From NCBI GenBank assembly GCA_051294375.1, contig CM119266.1:8712177-8739640 (forward strand): DNA of 27,464 nt, given 5' to 3'. Under the pieces are notes generated by a model. It saw only the letters and a program-made list of their open reading frames with translations, had not been told where the DNA came from and did not search any database. A program made the translations under genes and the position numbers. The stretch comes from Paraspadella gotoi. Its lineage: Eukaryota > Animalia > Chaetognatha. Shown here piece after piece: positions 6,101 through 25,800 of this stretch. Position 1 is the stretch's first letter, and every line of letters starts with the position of its first letter.

Positions 6101-7203
6101 GATTCAGTCCCCCCCTCCCAATCTTTTCCAGGTTACGGCCTCCCCGTAGACATTTGGGCCCTCGGCGTCATCACCTACATCCTTCTTTGCGGATTCCCTC
6201 CCTTTCGATCTCCCGATCGACGACAGTCTGAACTCTTTGAGATCATCAAAGCCGGAGAGTTCGAGTATCTCAGCCCTTACTGGGACAGGTACTTGTAGAA
6301 TTTGAACTAAAAATGGCGTAAAATGATGATGATATCGTGATGAGCACTACTGTCTCATGGGCGGGTATGATTGGTACTGGGAGAAAGAGATCCTATCATA
6401 GTGCAGTGAGAAAATAAAATCGTGTGATGCTGATGAAAGTTTATTGAGTTGTGATGCCCCATGGAATATGGGACATAGTTGTGCCATCAATGGATGGAAC
6501 TATAGACAAACATGGACGACCAAGCACATCAAAAGACGTATTAAGGAGTTGCTGGGTCATGATACTTATTTTTCCTACTTCTTTTGCCTCTCCTTTCTCC
6601 TCCTCATCTTCTTCCTCCCTTTTCTCTTTCTCACTCTCTTCCTCTTCCTCACTCTCTTCCTCTTCCTTCCCCCAGCATCTCGTCCCCAGTTCGCGACTTG
6701 ATCGACTCCATGTTGGAGATGGATCCTCAGCGGAGATTTAAGGCTTCGCAGGTGAGGATTTGTGTGAGGATTTGTGCGAGGATTTGTGTGATGATTTGTG
6801 TGAGGATTTGTGCGAGGATTTGTGTGATGATTTTTGTGAGGATTTGTGTGAGGATTTGTGCGAGGATTTGTGTGAGGATTTTTGCTATGGATTTTTATTT
6901 GGATTTCGCTGTGAATGTTTCTGAGGTTTATTCTTTTTTAATGGTAGAAAGATTTAAAATAGATGACGATTTATCAATTTAATTTGATGTGAAAAATCAG
7001 TGGTAAAAAATAAGGAATAAAGAAATATTTTCGGTAGTGACCTTTCATGAAAAAATATTTATAAATCATATCCGAATAATTTTAAATGACGCTTGGAACA
7101 AGTGCAACCCTCATTTACTAATGTCTAATTCATGTTAATTGTGTCTCAGGTTCTAAACCACAAATGGATTCTCAAACACAATCTTCCCGCGCGAGAACCT
7201 TGA
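160..7203 (+). CDS. DCLK3: Doublecortin-like serine/threonine kinase (DCLK3-like), 5' end outside window, multi-exon
   Basis: Exons bounded by GT-AG: 160-298, 654-778, 1144-1311, 1691-1807, 2265-2343, 2437-2734, 2980-3150, 3219-3525, 3874-4095, 4348-4475, 5208-5403, 5605-5761, 5938-6060, 6132-6288, 6676-6751, 7150-7203 (TGA). The first two exons give a DCX domain ([52 protein letters not shown]). Kinase motifs: [71 protein letters not shown]. Three 1-nt homopolymer indels (~1165, ~2585, ~3068) must be assumed in the linker exons. DCLK family assignment is firm; the DCLK3 subtype is from recalled similarity. Confidence 0.88.
1803..2035 (+). repeat. 50-bp purine-rich minisatellite, about 4.5 copies, starting at a splice donor
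   Basis: Unit AGAAGGTGAGAATTAAGGAAAGGGATTAAGGAAAAGGAAAGAGTGGATTA. Confidence 0.9.
3590..3780 (+). repeat. Degenerate (TAACCY)n-like hexamer repeat, intronic
   Basis: Recurrent AACCTT, AACCCT and AATCCT units. Confidence 0.6.
4222..4275 (+). repeat. (TGAAC)n microsatellite
   Basis: About 10 perfect pentamer copies. Confidence 0.95.
4348..7203 (+). CDS. DCLK3: Protein kinase domain exons of the DCLK gene (CAMK group)
   Basis: Seven phase-compatible exons, uninterrupted frame, with Gly loop, VAIK-type Lys, HRD, DFG and APE motifs all present. Confidence 0.95.
6752..6882 (+). repeat. 12-bp minisatellite (GTGAGGATTTGT)n, about 11 copies, starting at a splice donor
   Basis: Directly visible; produces the VRIC/ARIC periodic ORF in the track. 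Confidence 0.95.
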
Positions 7204-8122: not shown

Positions 8123-9180
8123 TTAAAAAATGATGTTGGTTACTGTGTAACTAAAAGCGTCCTTAGTGATTTATTTATTGAATTGTGATCTCTAGTTGTA
8201 AAACTTTTTCACTGCCCGACTGGTCAATTCACGCGGTTCTTCTTTTGCACATTTCGCTAATTTAAAATAATAATGATCATTTTGTTACTGTTTCTTTAAT
8301 TTCATTTAAACTGTACTATATAGTATTAAAAAAAATTGATCAGGATTCTTCTGCAAGCGCATAGCGTTTTTGGGATAATCTTAAAACGGTTAATACATAA
8401 ATGATTACTGTCCTTCGAATTTGTTACTTTGTTCGTAAAAATTATGTTCACAATACATTTCCTATGGGTTATAACGATTTTAATGTATTAATATTTATTT
8501 TCAAAAACGCCAATTATTAGACAGAAATAAAAGTTTAGAATATAATACTACTAAAGGAGAAATTAGTTTAGTGGTTGCAAAGATGATGAGATGACGAATG
8601 GGTAAATGCATTAGAGGACAGGGATAAAAGATAAGATTCATGTTGAGGGTAAACCAATAGCAGTAAAATCACACCTTGTCTCAGTTAAAGGGAAAAAATT
8701 TGGCAAAAAATGTAATTGAATTGTTCTGGATTGTACTGATGGGTAAGACATATTCTCCCCTCTCGCCCACTCAATTCGAAATGGTTTTCACCCTTTTGTA
8801 CTAAACGGAAATAACTCTTGGCCCTTTCCGCCACTCTCTGCTTACTCAAGTTGAAAATTCCCGCCTTTTTTTCTCTCTGAAAAAGTTGGCGGGAAACGAG
8901 ATTTGATTTCTTTAGCAAAGAAATCCGTGGAAAAAAGAAAAAAAAATTGGAAAAAAAAATTGGAAAAAAAAAAGAAAGAACAAACTCAAAGCAGCTCAAC
9001 AAACAGAAAAACTTTTAACTTTAAATTCACGATTTTATCTCGAATCTGTGAAACGAAAAGCAATATCCTCTAGCGAAAAAAAGAATGTTTTTATGGCTTT
9101 AACGCTTAGAAAACTCAATTTGTAAAATAAGCTTAACTTAAAAAACGAAACATAACGAAACGAAACGAAACGAAACAAAA

Positions 9181-10384
9181 ATGTCGGTGAAAAAAATTTC
9201 GTTGGGATTTCGAATGATCGAAGTTTTGAAGAAAAAATTCGACGAATTCGACAAAGATAAAAATGGAGTCTTGACTTTGGACGAAATTTTGGAAATGTGC
9301 GACGCTGGTGAGAAAATCAATCGATCGATCAGTCAAAGCGATTAGACAATAATCTTCAATATGAGGCTAATGAGAATAATAAAAAAAATATAGAGAGAGT
9401 CTTGATTGAAAGCTTGCAAGAGTGATGGAGGCCTTAAACCACCAAAGCCTGTCCAAAGTCAGGGGCAAGATAGATTCTTTATTAAATGAATGGATAATTT
9501 TTATATTGGTTGCACCAATTTCATAGTTTCGATAGATAGTGGCAACTTCTAGGGAATCTTCCTGCAGCTGTAACTTGGTCAGCCTTTTGGTAATGTTACC
9601 AAAAATTGATCACGTTATGCGGTTATTGGAATGTCACAGTCGCCTCGTTTATCATTTGGTTCGATCGTAAATTTCATGTTGGTAAAATGTAAATAATGTT
9701 TTCGCAGACAAAAGCGACGCGGAGAAAATAATGAAACATTTCGATATGAACGGAGACGATCAAATTGAGAGAGAAGAATTCAAACACGTCGGATTGTTGT
9801 TGTTGTCGAATCAACAATTCAAGGTGAGGAAAAAAGAGAAGGGAGAGAGATAGCGGTCTTTCTGTCAGTTTTAGAAACTGTCTTTCATTGTAAGATCAAT
9901 ATAAAAATTATATATTCATTAAACAAATAACCTTTAAAAAAATAAAAACAAACAAACAAATAACGTTGACTGTTGATAGGCTGGGTTAAGGCGTCAATTC
10001 CTCTTACAACTTTATATTATCATCGCAGTTAATAGACCAAACGGTTTGCCTCTCTTGGCTTTTTTTAAAATTTTAACTCGGTTTAAATTTTTTTCTTATA
10101 CTTTCCCACCTTTTTCTCCTTGTTCTTTTAGCAATCTACCTCAAGTCTTTTTCTCCTTTTTTTTCTTCATTCATACCTTCTGCCCTCTTCCTCCTTCTCC
10201 CCTCTTCCTCCTTATCCTCTCTGACCTCCTTCTTCCCTCTTCCTCCTGCTCTCTTCCTCTCACTCTTCCGAAAAATTCCTTTCCTTCTTCCTTTTCTTCT
10301 TTCACTTCCTTTCTCTTCCTCCACTTCTCATCGTCGACTATTGACCTCTCTCTCCTCTCCTCTCTCTCCTCCTCTCTTCTCTCT

Positions 10385-10435
<51 letters not shown>

Positions 10436-10584
10436 CCTCATCTCAGTCCTACGACACCAACGGGGACGGCGTTCTCTCAAAGTCCGAATTCTTTTCCGCC
10501 TTAAAATCGATGAAATTCGAAGACGAACAAATCGATCGAATTTTCCGTCGCGCAGACGCAGATTCGTCGGGAACGATCGACAGG

Positions 10585-10619
<35 letters not shown>

Positions 10620-11000
10620 ATCTCAATTGTTATCGTTGTTCATAATCATATTCCCGTTATTTTCGTCGTCGTTGTTGCGAGCTTTTATAGTTTTATAATT
10701 AATAATTAAAAACAAGTGGTTTTTACAGATTAGCCTTAGGATAATTACTTACATACATACATAGTTACATACATTACATTATATTAATTACATATTGTAT
10801 AACTGAGGATGATAATTGACGATTTTGAAATAAAATTTTATCATTAAAAATATTTTTTGGAAAAAATCGAATACCATTTGATGAGTATAATAAATAGCGA
10901 ATTGGACAATGACAAAATGACAAAATGACAAAATGACAAAATGACAAAAATAATCATCAATCGATCACAGATTTGAATTCCTCTCCGCGTTGATGCATCT
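9181..11000 (+). CDS. Four-EF-hand calcium-binding domain (N-terminal part of the fusion gene)
   Basis: Four 12-residue loops with D at position 1, D/N at 3, D/N/S at 5, hydrophobic at 8 and E at 12, each flanked by helical segments. EF4 is split by intron 10584-10970. Confidence 0.92.
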
Positions 11001-12697
11001 CATCGCTCCGCCCACCAACGTCTCTCTCGACGTTGAAGGCGCCTTTAAGAAAAGGAAGGCGCCATCCGGGGCAGAGGGCGCGTCCTCTAGAGGAGGATCA
11101 GGGGCAGAGGGCGCGTCCTCTGCCGGGAAGAGGAAGAGGACGGCGCAGACGACGAAGACGACGACCAAAACGACGACGACGAAGACGAAGAAGAGGAAAA
11201 GAAGTCGTCGAGACAGTTTCGCAGTTTACATCTACAGGGTGAGTGAAAAAGGAGCCGAGTTGTTAATACAGGGTAAGAGGTTTGGTGGGAAATATAAGGC
11301 GACAGTATATGACGTTAGAAGCAGTAAGGTCTAGAAAAAAATGTTGAGGGAAAACAGGAGGAAATACTATAATATTTTTACTTTTTGCCTTATTTTTTCA
11401 ATGTTTAACAAACTGCTTTTTTCTTGCTCTTGTTTTTTTAGGTCGCTCGTATTCCCGACCGATCGCTTTGTCACTGTGCTTGTAGATATTAAACATTAAA
11501 CTAATCCATCATTGGTATTAATTATTGTGTAAGTTTTTTTACAAAAATGTTCCGAACCATGAGTAATTCGCTAATTAATATTATTATATTGCTATATAAT
11601 GTCAAAAATTTTTTTTGATATTTTAAGTTTTTTTAATTGATTCTGATAAAGCTTAAAAAGTTAAGCAAAAAATATAATTACAACTTTTTAAAATTTTGAT
11701 GTTTTATTACTAAAAATTAGTAAAAACTGCTAAAATCATCGGATGATGATGATGATGATGATTTTTTAAGGTTTTTCTCAATTTAAACCCACTTATCATC
11801 AAAATATTGAAAAAAGAATTATACTTTGTGTAGATAACTTTTCATAAGCTATTTGAATCTGCTTTTAAAAATAAAAAATTCCCAAAAAAATTTTGACATT
11901 TCCTATCTATAAATAAATATTAAAAAATTAATTACTAATGCTTCTTACCATTTTAGAAAATTTTGCTCCTTTGAAAGTTTTCTCAGAAATGTATGGAGTT
12001 TCATTTGGAAAGGTTCCCAAATCAAACTTCTGACCCACCCCATTGACGAAGTTTGGTTCTATTGTCGATTAGCCCGATTGTCGCCAAAAATCTCTCGACT
12101 TGTTGACCTTTTGTCTCCTCTCAGGTTCTCCGCCAAATCTTCCCCCAACCCTCCGTCGCCATCTCCTCCAACGCGATGAAGATCCTCGACTCTTTCGTCC
12201 GCGACATCATGCAGAGAATCTCCTCCGAGGCGGCCGGGCTGGCCAAGAGGTGGGTGGCAAAGGGATGCAGTTGAACAGCGACTGGCCTTTGGGTCAACTT
12301 GGAAGTATATTTGTACGTGGTACCTAAATGAGAACGGCAAGGAGCCATGATATGAGTTGGCAAGGAAAGAAGATTCCTCTAATAAATGAATAGTTATGGT
12401 ATGGTCCCCTTGTTTAAAGAAGCGTAATAATGGCTCCTTTGTACTTTGAAATAAATTGCTAAAATTTTTTTGTTTTTTAAATTTCAAACTTCGTTTTGTT
12501 TTCAATTTGCCTTGCTCGTTTTTCTCATTCGTTAATTTTGTTTTTATTTTCAAAAATTGTCCCTCAGAAACGGAAAACGAACTCTTACCAGTCGCGAAGT
12601 CCAAACTGCGGTGAGGCTCCTTCTGCCGGGAGAGTTGGCCAAACACGCCGTCAGTGAAGGCACGAAGGCCGTCACCAAATTCACGGCAAGCGGATGA
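9181..12697 (+). CDS. EF-hand (x4) - histone H2B fusion protein, 300 aa, six exons
   Basis: Exons 9181-9307, 9708-9823, 10447-10583, 10971-11238, 12125-12249, 12568-12697 (127+116+137+268+125+130 = 903 nt). All introns are GT-AG, intron phases 1,0,2,0,2 match, and no frameshift is needed. EF loops: [49 protein letters not shown]2B part: [101 protein letters not shown]. Confidence 0.9.
10584..10620 (+). repeat. (GTT)n microsatellite starting at a splice donor
   Basis: About 12 GTT copies beginning with the intron GT. Confidence 0.9.
11188..12697 (+). CDS. H2B: Histone H2B fold (C-terminal part of the fusion gene), split by two introns
   Basis: Near-canonical H2B C-terminus [29 protein letters not shown] in exon 12568-12697. 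Helix 1/2 region in 12125-12249. KKRKRSR basic region in exon 4. Confidence 0.96.
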
Positions 12698-13144
12698 GGA
12701 GGAGGAGGAGGAGGAGGAGGAGGAGAAAGAAGAGGAGGAGGAGAAGTCGTTTTCAGTCGTCATCATCATCGTCAGAACTTTTGACAATGATGACAACTGA
12801 CAAAAACAATTAGGACATTGTCATACTCGCTTTACCATCAAAAGAAAAGGAAGAATCGCTGAAACTCATTACTCAATCTTCATATGTGGCGCTTATTTTA
12901 TGCTAAATCATTTATCAAAAAAGCGTATTAAGTTTTAAAGCGACTACAGTCTGTTTTTCATTTTAGTTTGTTTGCAAAGCGTTAGGGAGCAGAATCTTTG
13001 CTATTCACATAGCTCGCTTATTTTTATTACTTTTTCAACTACCTTTCACTCTCCCACTTTCTGTCTCTCATTCTATCCTCGTTTAAGTTTAAAACCTGTG
13101 AAGAGATCGAGAAATTTTGAGTTCGAGGCTGAGGAGTGAATGAT

Positions 13145-13145
13145 G

Positions 13146-13178
<33 letters not shown>

Positions 13179-13180
13179 AG

Positions 13181-13249
<69 letters not shown>

Positions 13250-13270
13250 AGAAGAGAGGAGAGAGAGAGA
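13145..13270 (+). repeat. (GA)n microsatellite upstream of the PPPDE-like gene
   Basis: Directly visible interrupted GA repeat. Confidence 0.95.
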
Positions 13271-13375
13271 CGAAGCGGGTTTTCGTTGACTCTCAATTTA
13301 CAGAGTTTCAATGTTTTCTTTGCTCGATTTTTCTAGTTTTTGATAACAAAATCCAAAAATTTAAAAAAAGTTTCG

Positions 13376-15734
<2,359 letters not shown>

Positions 15735-17488: not shown

Positions 17489-18759
17489 ATGGCCTCTCGT
17501 GGTCGAACGCCTCGTCGGCAACGCGGCGCTCCCTTCGGCGGCAACGTGGATCGGGGCCTCATGTTCGGCGACGACGGCGGCGTCGATCGCGGCGCCCGTG
17601 TCGGGCGCGGCGTCGGTCGCGGCGTCGGTCAGGGCGTCGGCGCCGTCTTCCAACGCCCATTCGACGACGCCATTCATCCGGCGACGCTGAAGCAAGCGAG
17701 GAAGAGCGGGCAGCTTAATCTCTCCAATAAAGTGAGTTTATGGATTGGTTTCCAATCAATTATTCAATCAATCATTCAATCAATCTATCAATGTGGCAGC
17801 CAATCAATCAACCAATCATTGTGGCCGCCAACCATTCAATGTGGCAATCAGTCAATCAATGTGGCAATGAATCAATCTGACTGACATTCAATCAATTTAG
17901 GAAATCAATCAAAGGGTCAATCAATTGATAAATCAAACTGTCGATCAATCAAAAAAATCGATGAATAAAAAATGAAGTAATCTAACCAACAAACGAACGA
18001 TAAAGCTATTAATATTATTTACATTGGTCATTCAGTTATCATATCAATCAATAAATAAATCAGTTATGAACTTAATCATTAATCAAATTCTCTCCTAGGG
18101 CTTCACCACAGTTCCTTCTTCAGTCTGGCGAATCAACCTCGATGTCCCTGAATCTTCGAATCCGAACGTCGCTGGTTCATTCGACGCTCAGGGCGAAGAC
18201 AGGTGGTGGGAACAGGTGGGTGAGATGGGAGGTGGTTGTGGGAACAGGTGGGTGATATGGGAATGGGTGACAGTGGTGGCAAATGGTGGGTGAGATGGTA
18301 AGTGGTTGTGGGAACAGGTGGTGGATGGAATCCCTGGTGGGAACAGGTGGGACAGATGGAAATCAGTGGTGAGAAAAGGGTAGGTTTGATTGGAACTCAT
18401 GCGGAAAACAGCTGGGTCTCGTAGTAATTGGTTGTAGGGAGCAGGAGGGTAAGATGGTAAGTACTGGTGGAAAGGTGAGTTTTAATGGGAATTGCAGGTG
18501 GGAAAGGGTGAGTTTGATGTCATGGTAGAACAGGTGGGTCTTATGGGAATTTGGTTAACACGAATAATAGGTGGGTATAGTAGAAATAGATGAGTTTGAT
18601 GGAAACTCGACTTTTTTTGTGTGGGGAAAATATCATTGAAAGCGCTGGATCGAAAATACTCGGTCACCCATGCAAGACTCCTAAAATCACAGACCGATTT
18701 TGCCCTTGAGCGTCGCTTTATAGCTTAAAAGTCGAGAGAGAGAGATGAGAGAGAGATAG

Positions 18760-18798
<39 letters not shown>

Positions 18799-21700
18799 AA
18801 GATTCGACTGCTCTCAAATGTCGCAGGGGTGTTTAAAATTAAAAAAAATATCCGGGTCACGAAATGCATATAATTTTCGTCGTAATTTTAATGAAATAAA
18901 TATTAAATTAAAACACGTGGCTCCTGTGATGCTTTTGGATTTCTTTTTTTCAGAGCTCTATGGCGGATCTAGTGAAATTGATGGTACCTTTGTTTTTATC
19001 TCTTCTCTTATGGCGAAATTGAAATTCATTTGTATCTCAACTTTTGTTTCTATTTCAATTCCGCAGGTGATCTGGCGAAAACTCATTCTCGCCTCGAATC
19101 AATCACGGAAATTTTCTTCCGAATCAAACTTCTTCCGGCATCACTGTTCTGGACGTAAATAAGGAGCTCTGATAGGAAAATACCGTGAAATTAATGAAAT
19201 TAAAATGTTATGGAAAAGGTGTGAAGAATACTTAGAAATGCCAGATGATGATGCAAGAAAACGGATAATGTGAAAAATTTTGCGAATATTTAAAAATGTA
19301 GGACACGAGGGGCTGGACATGAAGCGCAGATAAAAATAAGAGATTGAATGTGTTGCTGAGATGCTGTGGCCATGCTGCAGAAATACTAAAAAAAGTTATG
19401 GTTTTTTACAATTTCTCGCCAGGTTCACGACAACGCCCTCTCGTCTCTCCCGCCGGAAATCGGCGAACTCGTTCACCTCCAGCGCCCCACGCGTCGCACA
19501 ACAAAATACATCGCTGCCGACGGAGATGACGAGATGCGTCGAGTTGAGAGTCTTCATCTGGTCACAATGAGTTGGAGGAGTTGCCGGGGGATATTGGTGA
19601 GGGATAGGGGGAGAGGGAGGAGAGAGATACAGCGAGATAAAAACTGAAAGACAGAAACAAAGACATATGAATACTAGCAGAATCGCTGTTCCTTTTAGTG
19701 CATGCCATAGGTCGAATTCATAACACTTAAATACGTGTTAGTCGTGATCGTTGTAGTTTTTCCCCACGGTCGATTCTTATCCGCGTGGTTTGAGCGTTAA
19801 TCGTCACCTTCTACTTTGGCGCCTTTTCAATTTCCTTTTTCTTTTTTTTTTTGTTTTTTTTTTAAATTTTTTTAATTTCCTTTCCTCGTGCTAAATGATC
19901 GATGCTTCTGGTTACACATTTTTTTTCCTCGATCCGTTTCCTCACTCGGATATATTTAGTGTGAAAATCTCGCTTTAAAACACGTGTATTTTTTATATCG
20001 TATGTCTTTTGTTTGCAAATTTCTTGATCTTCGAACTGCAGATCGCGAGCGACATCTGTTGTACAATAAAGAAATTAAAGCGAGGCCTTTTGTTTTACTG
20101 AGAACACACAATTCTAGGAAAAGAAAAACGACAAAATAACTTACTAATGATTTTAATTAAATAAAAAAATCAATATTATTTTTTTTTTAAGGCGAACTAA
20201 ATCTGTTAGAGGAATTTCGCATCGATCACAATAGCCTCACGTCTCTTCCTTCGTCCATCGGATTTTGACTCGAGTACAGAAACCGATGTCTCCTACAATA
20301 AACTGACTAAGCTCTCTCCAGGTAAGGAATGAATGAATGAATGAATGAATGAATGAAATGAATGAATGAATGGTGGATTAATGATGAAAGAAAATGATTT
20401 ATTTAATTAATACATATGGGTAAAAGCAATAACAATTCTTTTATGGCGTGTTATCGGGTACAGGAAAACCTGAATTTGTATCAATTGACTTTTTACTCTG
20501 TTTTTACTTACTACACTCGAATAGAAAGGTAAGGAAGCAAATATTTTTTCTCCAAATTGAAAAAAAAAATGTAAATCTTTCTAAAAATCTAAGTCTTTCC
20601 TACTTTCGACTCCCAAGTTCGCAGTCAGTCTGTCCGTCCGCCAGGCTTATTTCTCTTTTCTTGATACGAATCTCCAGATGATCAAAGTTTCAGTTGTTCG
20701 ATGTTCCATCGTCTCAAATAGTCGATCTCCTAGCGTCGATTTCTCTCCACTTTAATCAGTTGATGGAATCAGGAATCTTCTTCCATCTTTTCCTCCAATT
20801 TCTGTCTTCTCAGGATGTTGACTCTTGACTTTGCAAATTCTCTTTTTCCTTTCCGTCTGATGTTGACTTGTCTGTCTTACAGATTCATTTGCTTCTCTTG
20901 TTGCCGACGCGCCTTGTCAGAAGCCCTTTCGCAGATTGCTTTCGTATGATTATAATCAAGTCAACCTACATAGTTTTCAGGTTCAAGTTGTCCCGTTCCG
21001 TTATAGAATTTCGTTGCGTGGATTCTCTTTCAATCTGTTTTAATTCCTCTCTCCTTTTCTTTCCTCATCTTTCTATTTTCTTTCCCCTTCACCTGCCATA
21101 CACTTTATTTTCGGATCTCGTTTAACCGTTCAATGTCCTTTTCTTTCAACTCCCTTTTTCTAATCTCTTAACTTTCCATTCTCTGTCTCTTTCAAACTGC
21201 TCATCGTTCCAATCCCTTCGTTTCGCCATCTCTTTATAAATTTATTTTCTTCCTTCCTTCTTTTTTCTTACATTTTTACAATCCACTCTCCATCTCTTTT
21301 TTTTAACACCTTCCTTATCCCCCTTTCCCTTATCCCCCTTCCCTTTCCCCCTTTCCCTTATCCCCTTACCCTTTTACCCCTTTCCTTCTCCTTCCCTTTC
21401 CCCCTTTCCTTACCCCCTCCCTTACCCCTTTACCTTACCCCTTCCTTACCCCTTCCCTTTCCCCCTTTTCCTTACCCCCCCCCTTTCCCCCTTTCCCTTC
21501 CCCTTTCCTTACCCCCTTCCCTTTCCCCTTTCCCATACCCCCTTCCTTTCCCTTACCCCTTCCCTTTCCCCTTTCCCTTACCCCCTTCTCTTTCCCTTTC
21601 CCTTACCCCTTCCGTTTTCTCCGTTCCCTTACCCCTTCTCTTTCCCTTTCCCTTACCCCCTTCCGTTTCCCCCGTTTCCCTACCACCTTCCCTTTCCCCC

Positions 21701-22833
21701 TTTCCCCTTACCCCCTTCCGCCTTTCCCCCTTTCCTTACCCCCTTCCATTTCCCTTACCCTCTTCCCTTTCCCCTTTCCCTACCCCTTGCGTTTCCCCGT
21801 TCCTTACCCCCTCTCTTCCCCTTTCCCTTACCCCTTCCGTTTCCCCGTTTCCTTACCACCTTCTCTTTCCCCTTTCCCTTCCCCCTTCCCTTTCCCTCTT
21901 TTCCTTACACCCTTCCTTTTCCCCTTTCCCTTACCCCCCTTCCCTTTCCTCTTTCCTTACACCTCTTCATTACCCCCTTCCCTTACCCCCCTTTCCCTTA
22001 CCCCCATCCTATTCCCAATCTCTCTCCCCCCCTCTCTCCCCCTCCTCTTTCCAGAATTGAGCTGCATGGATTCCCTCCAATCTCTCGAGGTAAACTCAAC
22101 GCCTTAACTTCTCTCGCCCGAAATCCAACTTCTTCCAAACTTCGAATCTCAACGCGAGGGACAATAACATCGATGATTTGCCTGAAGGAATCGGGGAGCT
22201 CAAGATGTTGAAGGAGCTGATGCTGGGTGAGGAGTCGATCGGACAATCAAACAATCGATCAATCAATCAGACAATCAGTGATCGATTAGAAAATCATTCG
22301 GTCAAACAATGAACAAACAATAAATCAACAAATAGNNNNNNNNNNNNNNNNNNNNNNNNNTGAGGTGGGAATCGTTGGTGGCAACAGGTGGGTGAGATGG
22401 AATCCCTGGTGGGAACAGGTGGGTCAGATGGAAATCAGTGGTGAGAAAGGGTAGGTTTGATTGGAACTCATGGCGGAAACAGCTGGGTCTCGTAGTAATT
22501 GGTTGTAGGAGCAGGTGGGTAAGATGGTAAGTGCTGGTGGGAAAGGGTGGGTTTAATGGGAATTGCAGGTGGGAAAGGGTTGAGTTTGATGTCATGGTAG
22601 GAACATGTGGGTCTTATGGGAATTTGGTTAAGACGAAATAACAAGTGGGTATAGTAGAAATAGATGAGTTTGATGGAAACTCGACTTTTTTTGTGTGGGG
22701 AAAATATCATTGAAAGCGCTGGATCGAAAATACTCGGTCACCCATGCAAGACTCCTAAAATCACAGACCGATTTTGCCCTTGAGCGTCGCTTTATAGCTT
22801 AAAAGTCGAGAGAGAGAGATGAGAGAGAGATAG

Positions 22834-22872
<39 letters not shown>

Positions 22873-25800
22873 AAGATTCGACTGCTCTCAAATGTCGCAG
22901 GGGTGTTTAAAATTAAAAAAAATATCCGGGTCACGAAATGCATATAATTTTCGTCGTAATTTTAATGAAATAAATATTAAATTAAAACACGTGGCTCCTG
23001 TGATGCTTTTGGATTTCTTTTTTTCAGAGCTCTATGGCGGATCTAGTGAAATTGATGGTACCTTTGTTTTTATCTCTTCTCTTATGGCGAAATTGAAATT
23101 CATTTGTATCTCAACTTTTGTTTCTATTTCAATTCCGCAGGTGATCTGGCGAAAACTCATTCTCGCCTCGAATCAATCACGGAAATTTTCTTCCGAATCA
23201 AACTTCTTCCGGCATCACTGTTCTGGACGTAAATAAGGAGCTCTGATAGGAAAATACCGTGAAATTAATGAAATTAAAATGTTATGGAAAAGGTGTGAAG
23301 AATACTTAGAAATGCAGATGATGATGCAAAGAAAACGGATAATGTGAAAAATTTTGCGAATATTTAAAAATGTAGGACACGAGGGGCTGGACATGGAAGC
23401 GCAGATAAAAATAAGAGATTGAATGTGTTGCTGAGATGCTGTGGCCATGCTGCAGAAATACCTAAAAAAGTTATGGTTTTTTACAATTTCTCCGCCAGGT
23501 TCACGACAACGCCCTCTCGTCTCTCCCGCCGGAAATCGGCGAACTCGTTCACCTCCAGCGCCTCCACGCGTCGCACAACAAAATAACATCGCTGCCGACG
23601 GAAATGACGAGATGCGTCGAGTTGAAGAGTCTTCATCTGGATCACAATGAGTTGGAGGAGTTGCCGGGGGATATTGGTGAGGGATAGGGGGAGAAGGAGG
23701 GGGAGAGAGAGCGAAAGAGAGACAGAGAGATACAGCGAGATAGAAACTGAAAGACAGAAACAAAGACACTGTGAATACTAAGCAGAATCGCTGTTTCTTT
23801 TAGTGCCATGCCATAGGTCGAATTCATAACACTTAAATCACGTGTTAGTCGTGATCGTTGTAGTTTTTTCCCCATGCGGTCGATTCTTATCCGCGTGGTT
23901 GAGCGTTAATCGTCACCTTCTACTTTGGCGCCTTTTCAATTTCCTTTTCTTTTTTTTTGTCTTTTTTTTAAATTTTTTTAATTTCCTTTCCTCGTGGCTA
24001 AATGATCGATGCTTCTGGCTACACATTTTTTTTCCCTCGGGATCCGTTTCCTCACTCGGATATATTTAGTGTGAAAATCTCGCCTTTAAAATCACGTGTA
24101 TTTTTTATCATCGTATGTCTTTTGTTTGCAATTTCTTGATCTTCGAAACTGCAGATCGCGAGCGACATCTGTTGTACAATAAAGAAATTAAAAGCGAGGC
24201 CTTTTTGTTTTACTGAGGAACACACAATTCTAGGAAAAGAAAAACGACAAAATAACTTAACTAATTGATTATTAATTAAATAAAAAAATCACTTTATTTT
24301 TTTTTAAGGCGAACTAAATCTGTTAGAGGAATTTCGCATCGATCACAATAGCCTCACGTCTCTTCCTTCGTCCATCGGATTTTTGACTCGAGTACAAAAA
24401 CTCGATGTCTCCTACAATAAACTGACTAAGCTCCCTCCAGGTAAGGAATGAATGAATGAATGAATGAATGAATGAATGAATGAATGAATGGTGGATTAAT
24501 GAATGAAAGAAAATGATTTATTTAATTAATACATATGGGTAAAAGCAATAACAAATTCTTTTATGGCGTGTTATCGGGTACAGGAAAACCTGAATTTTGT
24601 ATCAATTGACTTTTTACATCTGTTTTTACTTACTACACTCGAATAGAAAGGTAAGGAAGCAAATATTTTTTCTCCCAAATTGAAAAAAAAAAATGTAAAT
24701 CTTTCTAAAAATCTAAGTCTTTCCTACTTTCGACTCCCAAGTTCCGCCAGTCAGTCTGTCCGTCCGCCAGGCTTATTTCTCTTTTCTTGATACGAAATCT
24801 CCAGATGATCAAAGTTCAGTTGTTCGATGTTCCATCGTCTCAAATAGTCGATCTCCTAGCGTCGATTTCCTCTCCACTTTTAATCAGTTGATGGAATCAG
24901 GAATCTTCTTCCATCTTTTCCTCCGATTTCTCGTCTNNNNNNNNNNTTGACTCTTGCTCTTGCAAATTCTCTTTTTCCTTTCCGTCTGATGTTGACTTGT
25001 CTCGTCTTTGCAGATTCCATTTGCTTCTCTTGTTGCCGACGTCGCCTTGTCAGAAGCCCTTTCGGCCAGATTGCTTTCGTATGATTATAATCAAGTCAAC
25101 CTACATAGTTTTCAGGTTCAAGTTGTCCCGTTCCGTTTATAGAATTTCGTTGCGTGGATTCTCTTTCCAATCTGTTTTTAATTCCTCTCTCCTTTTCTTT
25201 CCTCATCTTTCTTTTTCTTTCCCCTTCACCTGCCATACACTTTATTTTCGGATCCCGTTTAACCGTTCAATGTCCTTTTCTTTCAACTCTCCTTTTTCTA
25301 ATCTCCTTAACTTTCCATTCTCTGTCTCTTTCCAAACTGCTCATCGATTGTTCTTTCCAACGCCTTCTCTTTCCAATNNNNNNNNNNNNNNNNNNNNNNN
25401 NNNNNNNNNNNNNNNNNNNNNNNNNNNNNNNNNNNNNNNNNNNNNNNNNNNNNNNNNNNNNNNNNNNNNNNNNNNNNNNNNNNNNNNNNNNNNNNNNNNN
25501 NNNNNNNNNNNNNNNNNNNNNNNNNNNNNNNNNNNNNNNNNNNNNNNNNNNNNNNNNNNNNNNNNNNNNNNNNNNNNNNNNNNNNNNNNNNNNNNNNNNN
25601 NNNNNNNNNNNNNNNNNNNNNNNNNNNNNNNNNNNNNNNNNNNNNNNNNNNNNNNNNNNNNNNNNNNNNNNNNNNNNNNNNNNNNNNNNNNNNNNNNNNN
25701 NNNNNNNNNNNNNNNNNNNNNNNNNNNNNNNNNNNNNNNNNNNNNNNNNNNNNNNNNNNNNNNNNNNNNNNNNNNNNNNNNNNNNNNNNNNNNNNNNNNN

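Follow-up and report, generated by a model that had tools for sequence, protein, structure and literature searches.

Comparison with Described Histones

The closest described counterpart of the protein reported here is macroH2A, in which a histone fold, a basic disordered linker and a globular ligand-binding domain are combined in the product of a multi-exon single gene (available portions of PMC8232725 and PMC12153100). In the accessible part of PMC8232725 it is described as the variant of most unusual organization, owing to this non-histone ligand-binding domain, and its linker is reported to compact DNA, more strongly without the macrodomain, an earlier example of a basic linker modulated by an attached globular domain. 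A second point of comparison is plant sperm H2B.8, an H2B variant with a greatly lengthened N-terminal region that condenses sperm chromatin (PMC9668745, accessible portion).

The window, the whole 27,464-nucleotide stretch of DNA analyzed, encodes a 300-amino acid protein (EF-hand-H2B) in which four EF-hands are followed by a 71-residue basic linker and an H2B fold. The three-part layout of a single chain is that of macroH2A; the differences are that the fold is H2B and not H2A, the appendage is N-terminal and the appended domain is an EF-hand domain without homology to the macrodomain, for which no match was found in the window exons or in three orthologues. EF-hand-H2B is known from a small set of sequences, whereas macroH2A is found across animals. 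By analogy, EF-hand-H2B is best read as a mirror-image macroH2A in which a Ca2+ sensor takes the place of the macrodomain, and it would represent an independent counterpart, built on H2B and conserved in at least four divergent sequence clusters in addition to the window. It differs from H2B.8 in that its extension terminates in a folded four-EF domain and in its unrelated origin.

The initial annotation knew of no described EF-hand-H2B variant, and literature searches, covering sources available in part, likewise found none. The term EF-hand is absent from the main texts of 10.1101/2021.11.30.470311, PMC2481426, PMC4751559 and PMC12153100 (term search) and from the main text and three supplementary PDFs of PMC12460157, the marker/gene-family spreadsheet of which may include the gene.

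Gene Structure and Transcript Evidence

As had been proposed from the DNA, six exons with GT-AG ends throughout join with zero corrections into a single reading frame of 903 nt including the stop, and an in-frame stop sits 5' of the exon 1 ATG. The features are as follows.

9039 to 9180, + strand: putative 5' UTR, inferred by arithmetic from the length of the X1 contig
9181 to 9307, + strand: coding part of exon 1, ATG and EF-hand 1 (loop aa 24-35), Pfam match
9708 to 9823, + strand: exon 2, EF-hand 2 (loop aa 55-66, without Gly6) and the long EF2-EF3 connecting helix
10447 to 10583, + strand: exon 3, EF-hand 3 (loop aa 84-95) and most of the EF4 loop (from aa 118)
10971 to 11238, + strand: exon 4, the fusion exon, with the end of EF4, a post-EF motif, the Ser/Thr-rich basic linker, the H2B basic patch and the start of helix 1
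12125 to 12249, + strand: exon 5, end of H2B helix 1, loop 1 (2-aa insertion) and helix 2
12568 to 12697, + strand: exon 6, H2B loop 2, helix 3, C-terminal helix and stop

Pfam EF-hand matches are obtained for exon 1 (E 1.6e-6), exon 2 (E 6.4e-6) and exon 3 (E 3.7e-11), and the N terminus encoded by exon 1 can be aligned with database proteins P0151, P0152 and P0154. The H2B fold assigned by the initial annotation is borne out by a Pfam Histone match in exon 5 (E 9.3e-4) and by exon 6, which has no Pfam match yet is similar to H2B chains of solved structure (E about 3e-17). No stop interrupts the frame of exon 4 between the final ligand of EF4 and the beginning of H2B helix 1. The acceptor of this exon at 10971 is the only one of two AG dinucleotides within 10900-11039 that preserves the frame.

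Transcript evidence comes from X1, a public run that is RNA by the guess of the tool and is not recorded as RNA. One 1058-nt contig of modest depth (13, one run) lacks introns 4 and 5 and spans the whole of exon 4, all without mismatch. Its alignment ends at 10967, the final four letters of exon 3 being identical to the final four of intron 3; the contig departs from the genome at the exon 4 acceptor, and the remaining 5' part is long enough for exons 1-3. Subtraction of these exons leaves 142 nt, which could belong to the genome from 9039 onward or could consist of a spliced leader and a shorter UTR, with AG acceptors upstream of the ATG giving candidate exon starts at 9061, 9074 and 9110. 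Two two-mismatch matches to the spliced-leader motif occur in the window, which is within chance (9/100 shuffles). The share of words found in X1, 0.30, is closer to the value expected for six exons (0.23) than to that for exons 4-6 (0.12), but it is a weak indicator because repeats inflate it. Of the read mapping over five junctions called for earlier, junctions 4 and 5 are seen spliced in X1, and the splice sites of introns 1-3 are supported by gap-free alignment across the junctions to independent proteins. Separate EF-hand and H2B mRNAs, the latter starting from an internal Met, are the outcome against which the initial annotation had set its proposal; the X1 contig and the full-length fusion proteins make them very unlikely.

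The surroundings of the gene differ from those of a replication-coupled H2B gene, which is intronless, lies in a histone cluster and has a 3' stem-loop. Five introns are present, the window has no histone neighbors, the adjacent genes being of the kinase, peptidase C97 and LRR types, and a histone stem-loop motif has no match in 12698-13400. Expression outside S phase would be expected from the introns, the solitary position and the lack of a stem-loop match.

Family, Paralogues and Taxonomic Assignment

The same design recurs in several marine sequences: the database has five full-length EF4-linker-H2B proteins, which fall into four clusters at 90%, as well as two partial records. These make EF-hand-H2B a conserved family rather than a mis-assembly. 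Against the four clusters, the window protein has 88-99 identical residues of 127-134 in the EF part (99/134 for P0154) and 62-65/98 in the H2B part, compared with only 9-18 of 57-62 in the linker, which indicates that both ends are constrained and the linker is free. In the EF tree, H2B-fused sequences and non-fused paralogues separate at 100/100; the H2B tree is poorly resolved and contains no single family clade, since it needs 2 changes, and in 4% of the bootstrap trees 1 change suffices.

An artefactual origin of the fusion in the window, by mis-assembly or by read-through splicing between two adjacent operon genes, is extremely improbable. Chaetognaths do possess operons (PMC2481426), the window elsewhere has N gaps and, further downstream, a duplicated, indel-rich block, junctions 1-3 depend on protein alignment, and record P0266 starts at a Met within the EF4 exit helix. 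However, there is no N in 8500-13500, and P0266 lies on an 820-nt contig too short for the whole frame. The join itself, which the initial annotation had placed inside exon 4 and regarded as independent of the joining of neighboring genes, does fall within that single exon, is covered by the X1 contig without mismatch and is found as a full fusion in the four clusters.

With exon 4 alone as query nothing was returned at E<=10 among 2145 candidates, and Atlas matches were weak only, so the protein of the window itself is absent from the database. A metagenome scan yielded 4 loci from 359 candidate stretches; one is a paralogue (L001), the remaining three resemble EF sequences distantly at 31-38% identity, and no DNA of an EF-hand-H2B orthologue occurs among those stretches. 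The dN/dS comparison suggested earlier for both halves could be made for the EF half against L001, where synonymous sites are saturated (pS 1.0, dN 0.35), and it shows old divergence with constraint only. L001, which has the same EF domain, bears the chaetognath spliced leader, 25/25 letters agreeing with the 3' end of SL2.0; the family is therefore probably chaetognath, an assignment made from the paralogue and not from the window or an EF-hand-H2B transcript. The existence of non-fused four-EF paralogues would also explain the origin of the EF module.

EF-hand Domain

The loops of the window protein start at aa 24, 55, 84 and 118. The claim that all four keep Asp1 and Glu12 extends to all 44 loops of 11 sequences, with the refinement that Gly at position 6 of the EF2 loop is absent in 11/11; paired 12-residue loops with these ligands are those of an EF-hand sensor. 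The domain has the four helix-loop-helix motifs of calcineurin B and calmodulin-type sensors, but the loop-to-loop spacings are short (31, 29 and 34 residues) and the EF2-EF3 helix is continuous, residues 64-81 forming it in the P0154 model. Over the whole domain, the paralogue profile finds its best sequence match in the calcineurin-B part of PDB 4il1 (stretch E 1.2e-7). In structure comparison (VIA) the EF domain gives generic EF-hand matches with none outstanding (best Z 9.1, rmsd 4.6), and its EF3-EF4 pair can be overlaid on centrin lobes and on calmodulin-like ones (Z 7-8, rmsd about 2 Å). No named EF-hand orthologue is present among 9 database matches, and likeness to named subfamilies (calmodulin, calcineurin B, penta-EF) is of a generic kind. 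The AlphaFold models are poor outside the EF domain (mean pLDDT 50 and 52, pTM 0.28 and 0.33, with 60-80 for the pLDDT of the EF domain) and show no inter-domain contact. The EF domain is acidic in the H2B-fused members (net -11 to -15).

Linker

The window linker is Ser/Thr-rich with a net charge of +14, and a long, basic (net +10 to +16) and disordered linker is found in 6/6 full-length sequences. It is preceded by a conserved post-EF motif at aa about 146-152, encoded by exon 4. The sperm H2B type of invertebrates has an SPKK-repeat tail, from which the window linker differs in having no SP/TP dipeptides; the relatives have 1-3.

These properties bear on an alternative in which a nucleosomal variant works through its linker, compacting sperm, oocyte or quiescent chromatin, and the EF domain, no switch, is a built-in acidic chaperone, buffers locally or is a docking module that carries Ca2+/Mg2+ constitutively. 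This is unlikely, though it deserves serious weight: the long, disordered basic linker of 6/6 sequences and the acidic EF domain are what it would predict, and H2B.8 offers the parallel of sperm chromatin condensation (PMC9668745, accessible portion). The scarcity of SP/TP sets the linker apart from the SPKK-repeat type, and the retention of Asp1 and Glu12 in all four loops of 11/11 sequences goes beyond the need of a pure chaperone.

H2B Fold

The H2B-type fold and C-terminal helix are both present, and among the 50 Foldseek matches listed all are H2B. Identity to mammalian H2B is 65-75/97 across the family. Helix 3 and the C-terminal helix are nearly invariant (30-31/33 identical in 6/6; 31/33 in the window), and changes are concentrated in helix 2 (17-21/30 identical) and loop 2 (1-2/5 identical). 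D68, E76, L80, E105, E113 and K120 are retained in 6/6 and include the acidic-patch residues E105/E113 and the ubiquitylation lysine K120. These features are shared with canonical H2B, from which the protein differs in its five introns, about 175 extra N-terminal residues, loss of Tyr83 and rewritten loop 2.

Differences occur at the interface with H4, where D68, E76 and L80 are kept and Tyr83 is lost in 6/6 family members, compared with its retention in 135/138 other H2Bs. In the window Arg replaces Tyr83, the codon being split by intron 5, and the changes in exon 5 helix 2 (mammalian numbering) are K57N, N63D, N67R, F70M, E71Q and R79G, of which F70M and E71Q also belong to the interface set. 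Across the family N67 is changed in 6/6, N63 in 5/6 and E71 in 4/6. H2B Tyr83 stacks within the H4/H2B bundle (10.1101/2024.12.31.630874, accessible part), and changes at F70 and E71 raise dimer exchange (PMC10657182, accessible part). The family-wide loss of Tyr83 suggests a loosened or non-standard nucleosome; it could equally mean that the nucleosome is never completed.

The latter possibility leads to an explanation in which the fold serves outside canonical nucleosomes, as a dimer with an H2A variant that does not dock on H3-H4; it could then store histones, sense Ca2+ while tethered to DNA or to a chaperone, or belong to a complex other than the nucleosome. The changes in helix 2 and loop 2 sit where H4 and DNA are contacted and those at positions 83, 67, 63 and 71 agree with it; the H4 contacts D68, E76 and L80 and residues E105, E113 and K120, kept in 6/6, matter mainly in a nucleosome, and we regard the explanation as unlikely.

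The window copy is the most diverged member (65/97, branch length 0.81), and a 2-aa insertion in loop 1 together with H49Q, K57N, F70M and R79G is found in none of the five relatives. With the modest X1 depth from one run, this would fit a fast-evolving or decaying paralogue of changed or lost function within a genuine family. An intact frame, correct splicing, the 31/33 identity of helix 3 and the C-terminal helix and the close EF match to P0154 speak against such a paralogue, which is considered quite improbable.

Proposed Mechanism

The reading preferred here, at a probability of roughly one half, is of a chaetognath-specific replacement histone, likely paired with H2A in loosened nucleosomes, in which Ca2+ would alter the grip of the tail on DNA or the recruitment of partners. 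The initial annotation had suggested a role of nuclear Ca2+ signals in compaction or factor recruitment, possibly in sperm, eggs or excitable cells. It would have arisen by fusion of a lineage-specific four-EF gene to H2B within the present exon 4. The N terminus of H2B protrudes from the nucleosome, so a 70-120-aa tether would leave space for a 15-kDa domain, as for macroH2A at the opposite end. At resting Ca2+ the acidic EF domain would damp its own basic linker. Ca2+ loading would cancel the charge and open a hydrophobic groove, the freed linker would bind DNA and bridge nucleosomes, and a partner site would be exposed, with the weakened H2B-H4 interface allowing a quick dimer exchange suited to signaling. 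The charge match may be incidental, because the EF domains of non-histone paralogues are equally acidic (net -12 to -17) without a basic tail.

Some observations sit poorly with this replacement-histone reading, namely the low confidence and separated domains of the AlphaFold models, EF2 without Gly6, the divergence of the window H2B and the failure of the H2B tree to unite the family as one clade.

More tentatively, arrow worms may possess a core histone with a built-in Ca2+ switch, whose nucleosomes would read nuclear Ca2+ without kinases or calmodulin and then compact, open or recruit factors; if true, this would be the first second-messenger-gated nucleosome, in a phylum with a rewired set of chromatin proteins. 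Were the protein to reside in nucleosomes, it would offer a direct and cheap test of nuclear Ca2+ acting on chromatin via the histone itself, the making of recombinant octamers, loop mutants and arrays being standard practice, and it is a possible natural template for chromatin-tethered Ca2+ reporters. Chaetognaths lack CenH3 and CENP-T, yet seem to possess localized centromeres made of unknown parts (PMC12460157). EF-hand-H2B is another candidate for odd chaetognath chromatin, with no evidence tying it to centromeres.

The top feature match for P0069 (score 0.88) is a separate, uncharacterized ESM Atlas cluster with the automatic name 'EF hand/Core histone H2A/H2B/H3/H4 domain-containing protein', possibly kin to the EF-hand-H2B family. 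By its description it has EF-hand in 94% and Histone in 100% of its 69 members; its 154-aa representative is too short for four EF-hands, linker and H2B.

Gene Structure and Transcript Evidence

Four genes are seen in the window, all on the + strand.

Protein kinase, ends near 7200, + strand; presumably DCLK-like by its motifs
EF-H2B, exons 9181-9307, 9708-9823, 10447-10583, 10971-11238, 12125-12249 and 12568-12697, + strand; EF1-EF4, linker and H2B
Peptidase C97 (PPPDE) gene, candidate start near 13376, + strand
LRR gene, from 17489, + strand; taken here to be LRRC40-like

The exon coordinates of EF-H2B in the initial annotation proved correct, with GT-AG ends on all six exons and a joined length of 903 nt encoding 300 codons and a stop. 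In Pfam, exons 1-3 match EF-hands and exon 5 matches the histone family, and a search of solved structures matches exons 5 and 6 to H2B chains. The fusion lies inside exon 4, as had been proposed, in a stop-free stretch that runs from the last EF4 ligand and the EF4 exit helix through a 71-residue linker to the beginning of H2B helix 1. There are zero N between 8500 and 13500. Exon 4 also holds a 21-nt perfect direct repeat (11068-11088 and 11101-11121), giving the linker two copies of a short Gly/Ala/Ser motif, a sign that the linker's length has changed recently.

One public run from one study, RNA by the tool's guess, matches the EF-H2B stretch. Aligned to 10950-12690, it gives a single 1058-nt contig at depth 13. 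Intron 4 (886 nt) is absent from the contig, as is intron 5 (318 nt), each removed at GT..AG ends, and there are 0 mismatches. The alignment ends at 10967, four letters short of exon 4, with no further intron 3 sequence following, and the four letters preceding exon 4 are identical to the final four of exon 3. The contig has 522 nt lying 5' of exon 4, of which the coding sequence of exons 1-3 would take 380 nt and leave 142 nt for a leader, the expectation for a complete six-exon mRNA. Of the five junctions for which RNA support had been sought, the last two are thus seen spliced, and joining at junctions 1-3 is inferred from this 5' length because the contig alignment covered 10950-12690.

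Neither AATAAA nor ATTAAA occurs in 12698-13400, and EF-H2B and its neighbours possibly form an operon. Within the LRR gene, a block of ~3 kb occurs twice (about 18250-21200 and 22340-25350, spacing 4074), with a 300-nt stretch 99% alike between copies; it is flanked by N gaps, and many small indels break its exons. The block is likely an assembly or gap-filling artefact, and the EF-H2B finding is unaffected by it.

EF-H2B Relatives and Origin of the Fusion

Exon 6, searched against 1.84 billion representatives, had 3497 matches, and one of the 150 listed, P0069, has four EF-hands as in the window (EF part, E 3e-60). With the EF region of P0069, 9 proteins passed from 124 candidates. P0069, P0153, P0154 and P0155 are complete EF4-linker-H2B proteins, P0151 is a mate of P0069 in one 90% cluster, P0152 is a fragment stopping within the linker, P0266 is a member short at its 5' end, and P0156-P0159 have the identical type of EF domain with a different C terminus. 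Among the 120 of 2987 profile-search matches listed, EF-hand and histone are combined only in the four clusters of the complete proteins. The relatives are records from Logan, JGI, MERC and ENA, on contigs of 0.8-3.9 kb where given.

The window protein aligns to them gap-free over exon junctions 1-3. Identities number 88-99 in 127-134 positions of the EF part, 62-65 of 98 in H2B and just 9-18 in 57-62 in the linker, indicating that both protein ends are constrained. By this comparison the fusion predates the divergence of the window and relative sequences, and EF-H2B is a real, conserved histone variant family. An artefact would have to coexist with the spliced contig and these relatives and is extremely improbable.

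The paralogues share the EF domain and have no histone.

Non-histone paralogues (P0156-P0159, P0299 and L001:152-910): four-EF domain, then an acidic C-terminal region of ~110 aa

Pfam matched nothing in this region of the two members that were scanned, and none of the 60 solved-structure matches listed covers it. The paralogues form clusters of up to 53 members from marine records. L001, a transcript-like contig from the metagenome scan, begins with 25 letters equal to the 3' 25 letters of the chaetognath leader SL2.0 (PMC2481426, Table 3), and chaetognath leaders are described there as having no likeness to those of any other phylum. The window is thus likely, by way of this paralogue, to be chaetognath DNA. 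In the EF-domain tree, fused and non-fused sequences (six rows per side) separate at 100/100, and their similarity extends slightly beyond EF4 over a short conserved motif (~aa 146-152) and then stops. The simplest history would be duplication of a lineage-specific four-EF gene and joining of one copy to H2B within the present exon 4; the tree has no outgroup, and this direction is presumed.

Histone Half

The family H2B shares 65-75 of 97 residues with P0214, the mammalian reference. Little has changed in helix 3 plus the C-terminal helix (30-31/33), and helix 2 (17-21/30) and loop 2 (1-2/5) are rewritten. Tyr83, retained in 135 of 138 other H2Bs compared, is Arg, Lys or Thr in all six members; N67 is changed in 6/6, N63 in 5/6 and E71 in 4/6, and D68, E76, L80, E105, E113 and K120 are retained throughout. 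In the H4/H2B bundle, H4 Y72 and Y88 stack with H2B Y83 and L80 (10.1101/2024.12.31.630874). Dimer exchange in vitro is reported to increase when D68, F70 or E71 is mutated (PMC10657182). We read these residues as pointing to a nucleosome whose outer face is ordinary and whose dimer-tetramer contact is loosened; the alternative is a dimer never completing a nucleosome. A role outside nucleosomes, to which the second reading would lend itself and the retained outer-face residues less so, is unlikely. The codon of position 83, where Tyr is lost family-wide, is cut by intron 5 (12249/12568).

The window's H2B is the most diverged member and carries a two-residue insertion in loop 1, as a decaying copy might; next to an intact frame and a spliced contig, decay is very unlikely.

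Among the window neighbours, EF-H2B stands apart from other histone genes, and no 3' stem-loop match was found downstream (12698-13400). Together with its introns, these features fit a replacement variant; in annelids, clustered histone genes have no introns and variants are often multi-exonic (PMC12153100).

Calcium Half and Proposed Mechanism

Asp1 and Glu12, which the initial annotation had reported in all four loops, are present in 44/44 loops of 11 sequences, and EF2 has no usual Gly at loop position 6. The predicted model of P0154 has four helix-loop-helix units (pLDDT 59-81), a continuous EF2-EF3 helix and a disordered linker (pLDDT ~30), with no contact between the EF and H2B domains. 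Sequence and fold searches give calcineurin B as a generic relative of the whole EF domain, and calmodulin and centrin lobes as generic relatives of EF3-EF4. In 6/6 full-length sequences the EF domain has a net charge of -11 to -15 and the linker of +10 to +16; the paralogue EF domains are equally acidic, yet have no basic tail.

EF-H2B may be a Ca2+-gated replacement histone, to which we give a probability of about 0.5. Beyond the sequence anatomy we infer each step: EF-H2B would pair with H2A and enter nucleosomes that exchange fast, and the tethered EF domain, once loaded with Ca2+, would free the basic linker to DNA and open a partner groove. MacroH2A offers a precedent, its basic linker compacting chromatin more strongly without the macrodomain (PMC8232725). 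Compaction driven by the linker with a passive EF domain would suit the basic charge and is a plausible if rather improbable alternative; the loop ligands are retained throughout.

Relation to Described Histones

EF-H2B is a member of the domain-bearing-histone kind. Full-text literature searches, with subscription papers mostly outside their coverage, found no EF-hand-H2B paper, in line with the initial annotation, which knew of no described variant, and the family is apparently undescribed so far. In term searches of the text and three PDFs of the chaetognath genome paper (PMC12460157), neither H2B nor EF-hand occurs; that paper describes loss of CenH3 and CENP-T and apparently localised centromeres. 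The ESM Atlas holds a 69-member cluster auto-named EF-hand/histone (154-aa representative, score 0.88), of whose members 100% have Histone and 94% have EF-hand_5, so a database already records the pairing in a different form that is uncharacterised and possibly an independent fusion. P0014, a 260-aa protein, seems by eye to join a ubiquitin-like N terminus, H2B and the beginning of H2A.
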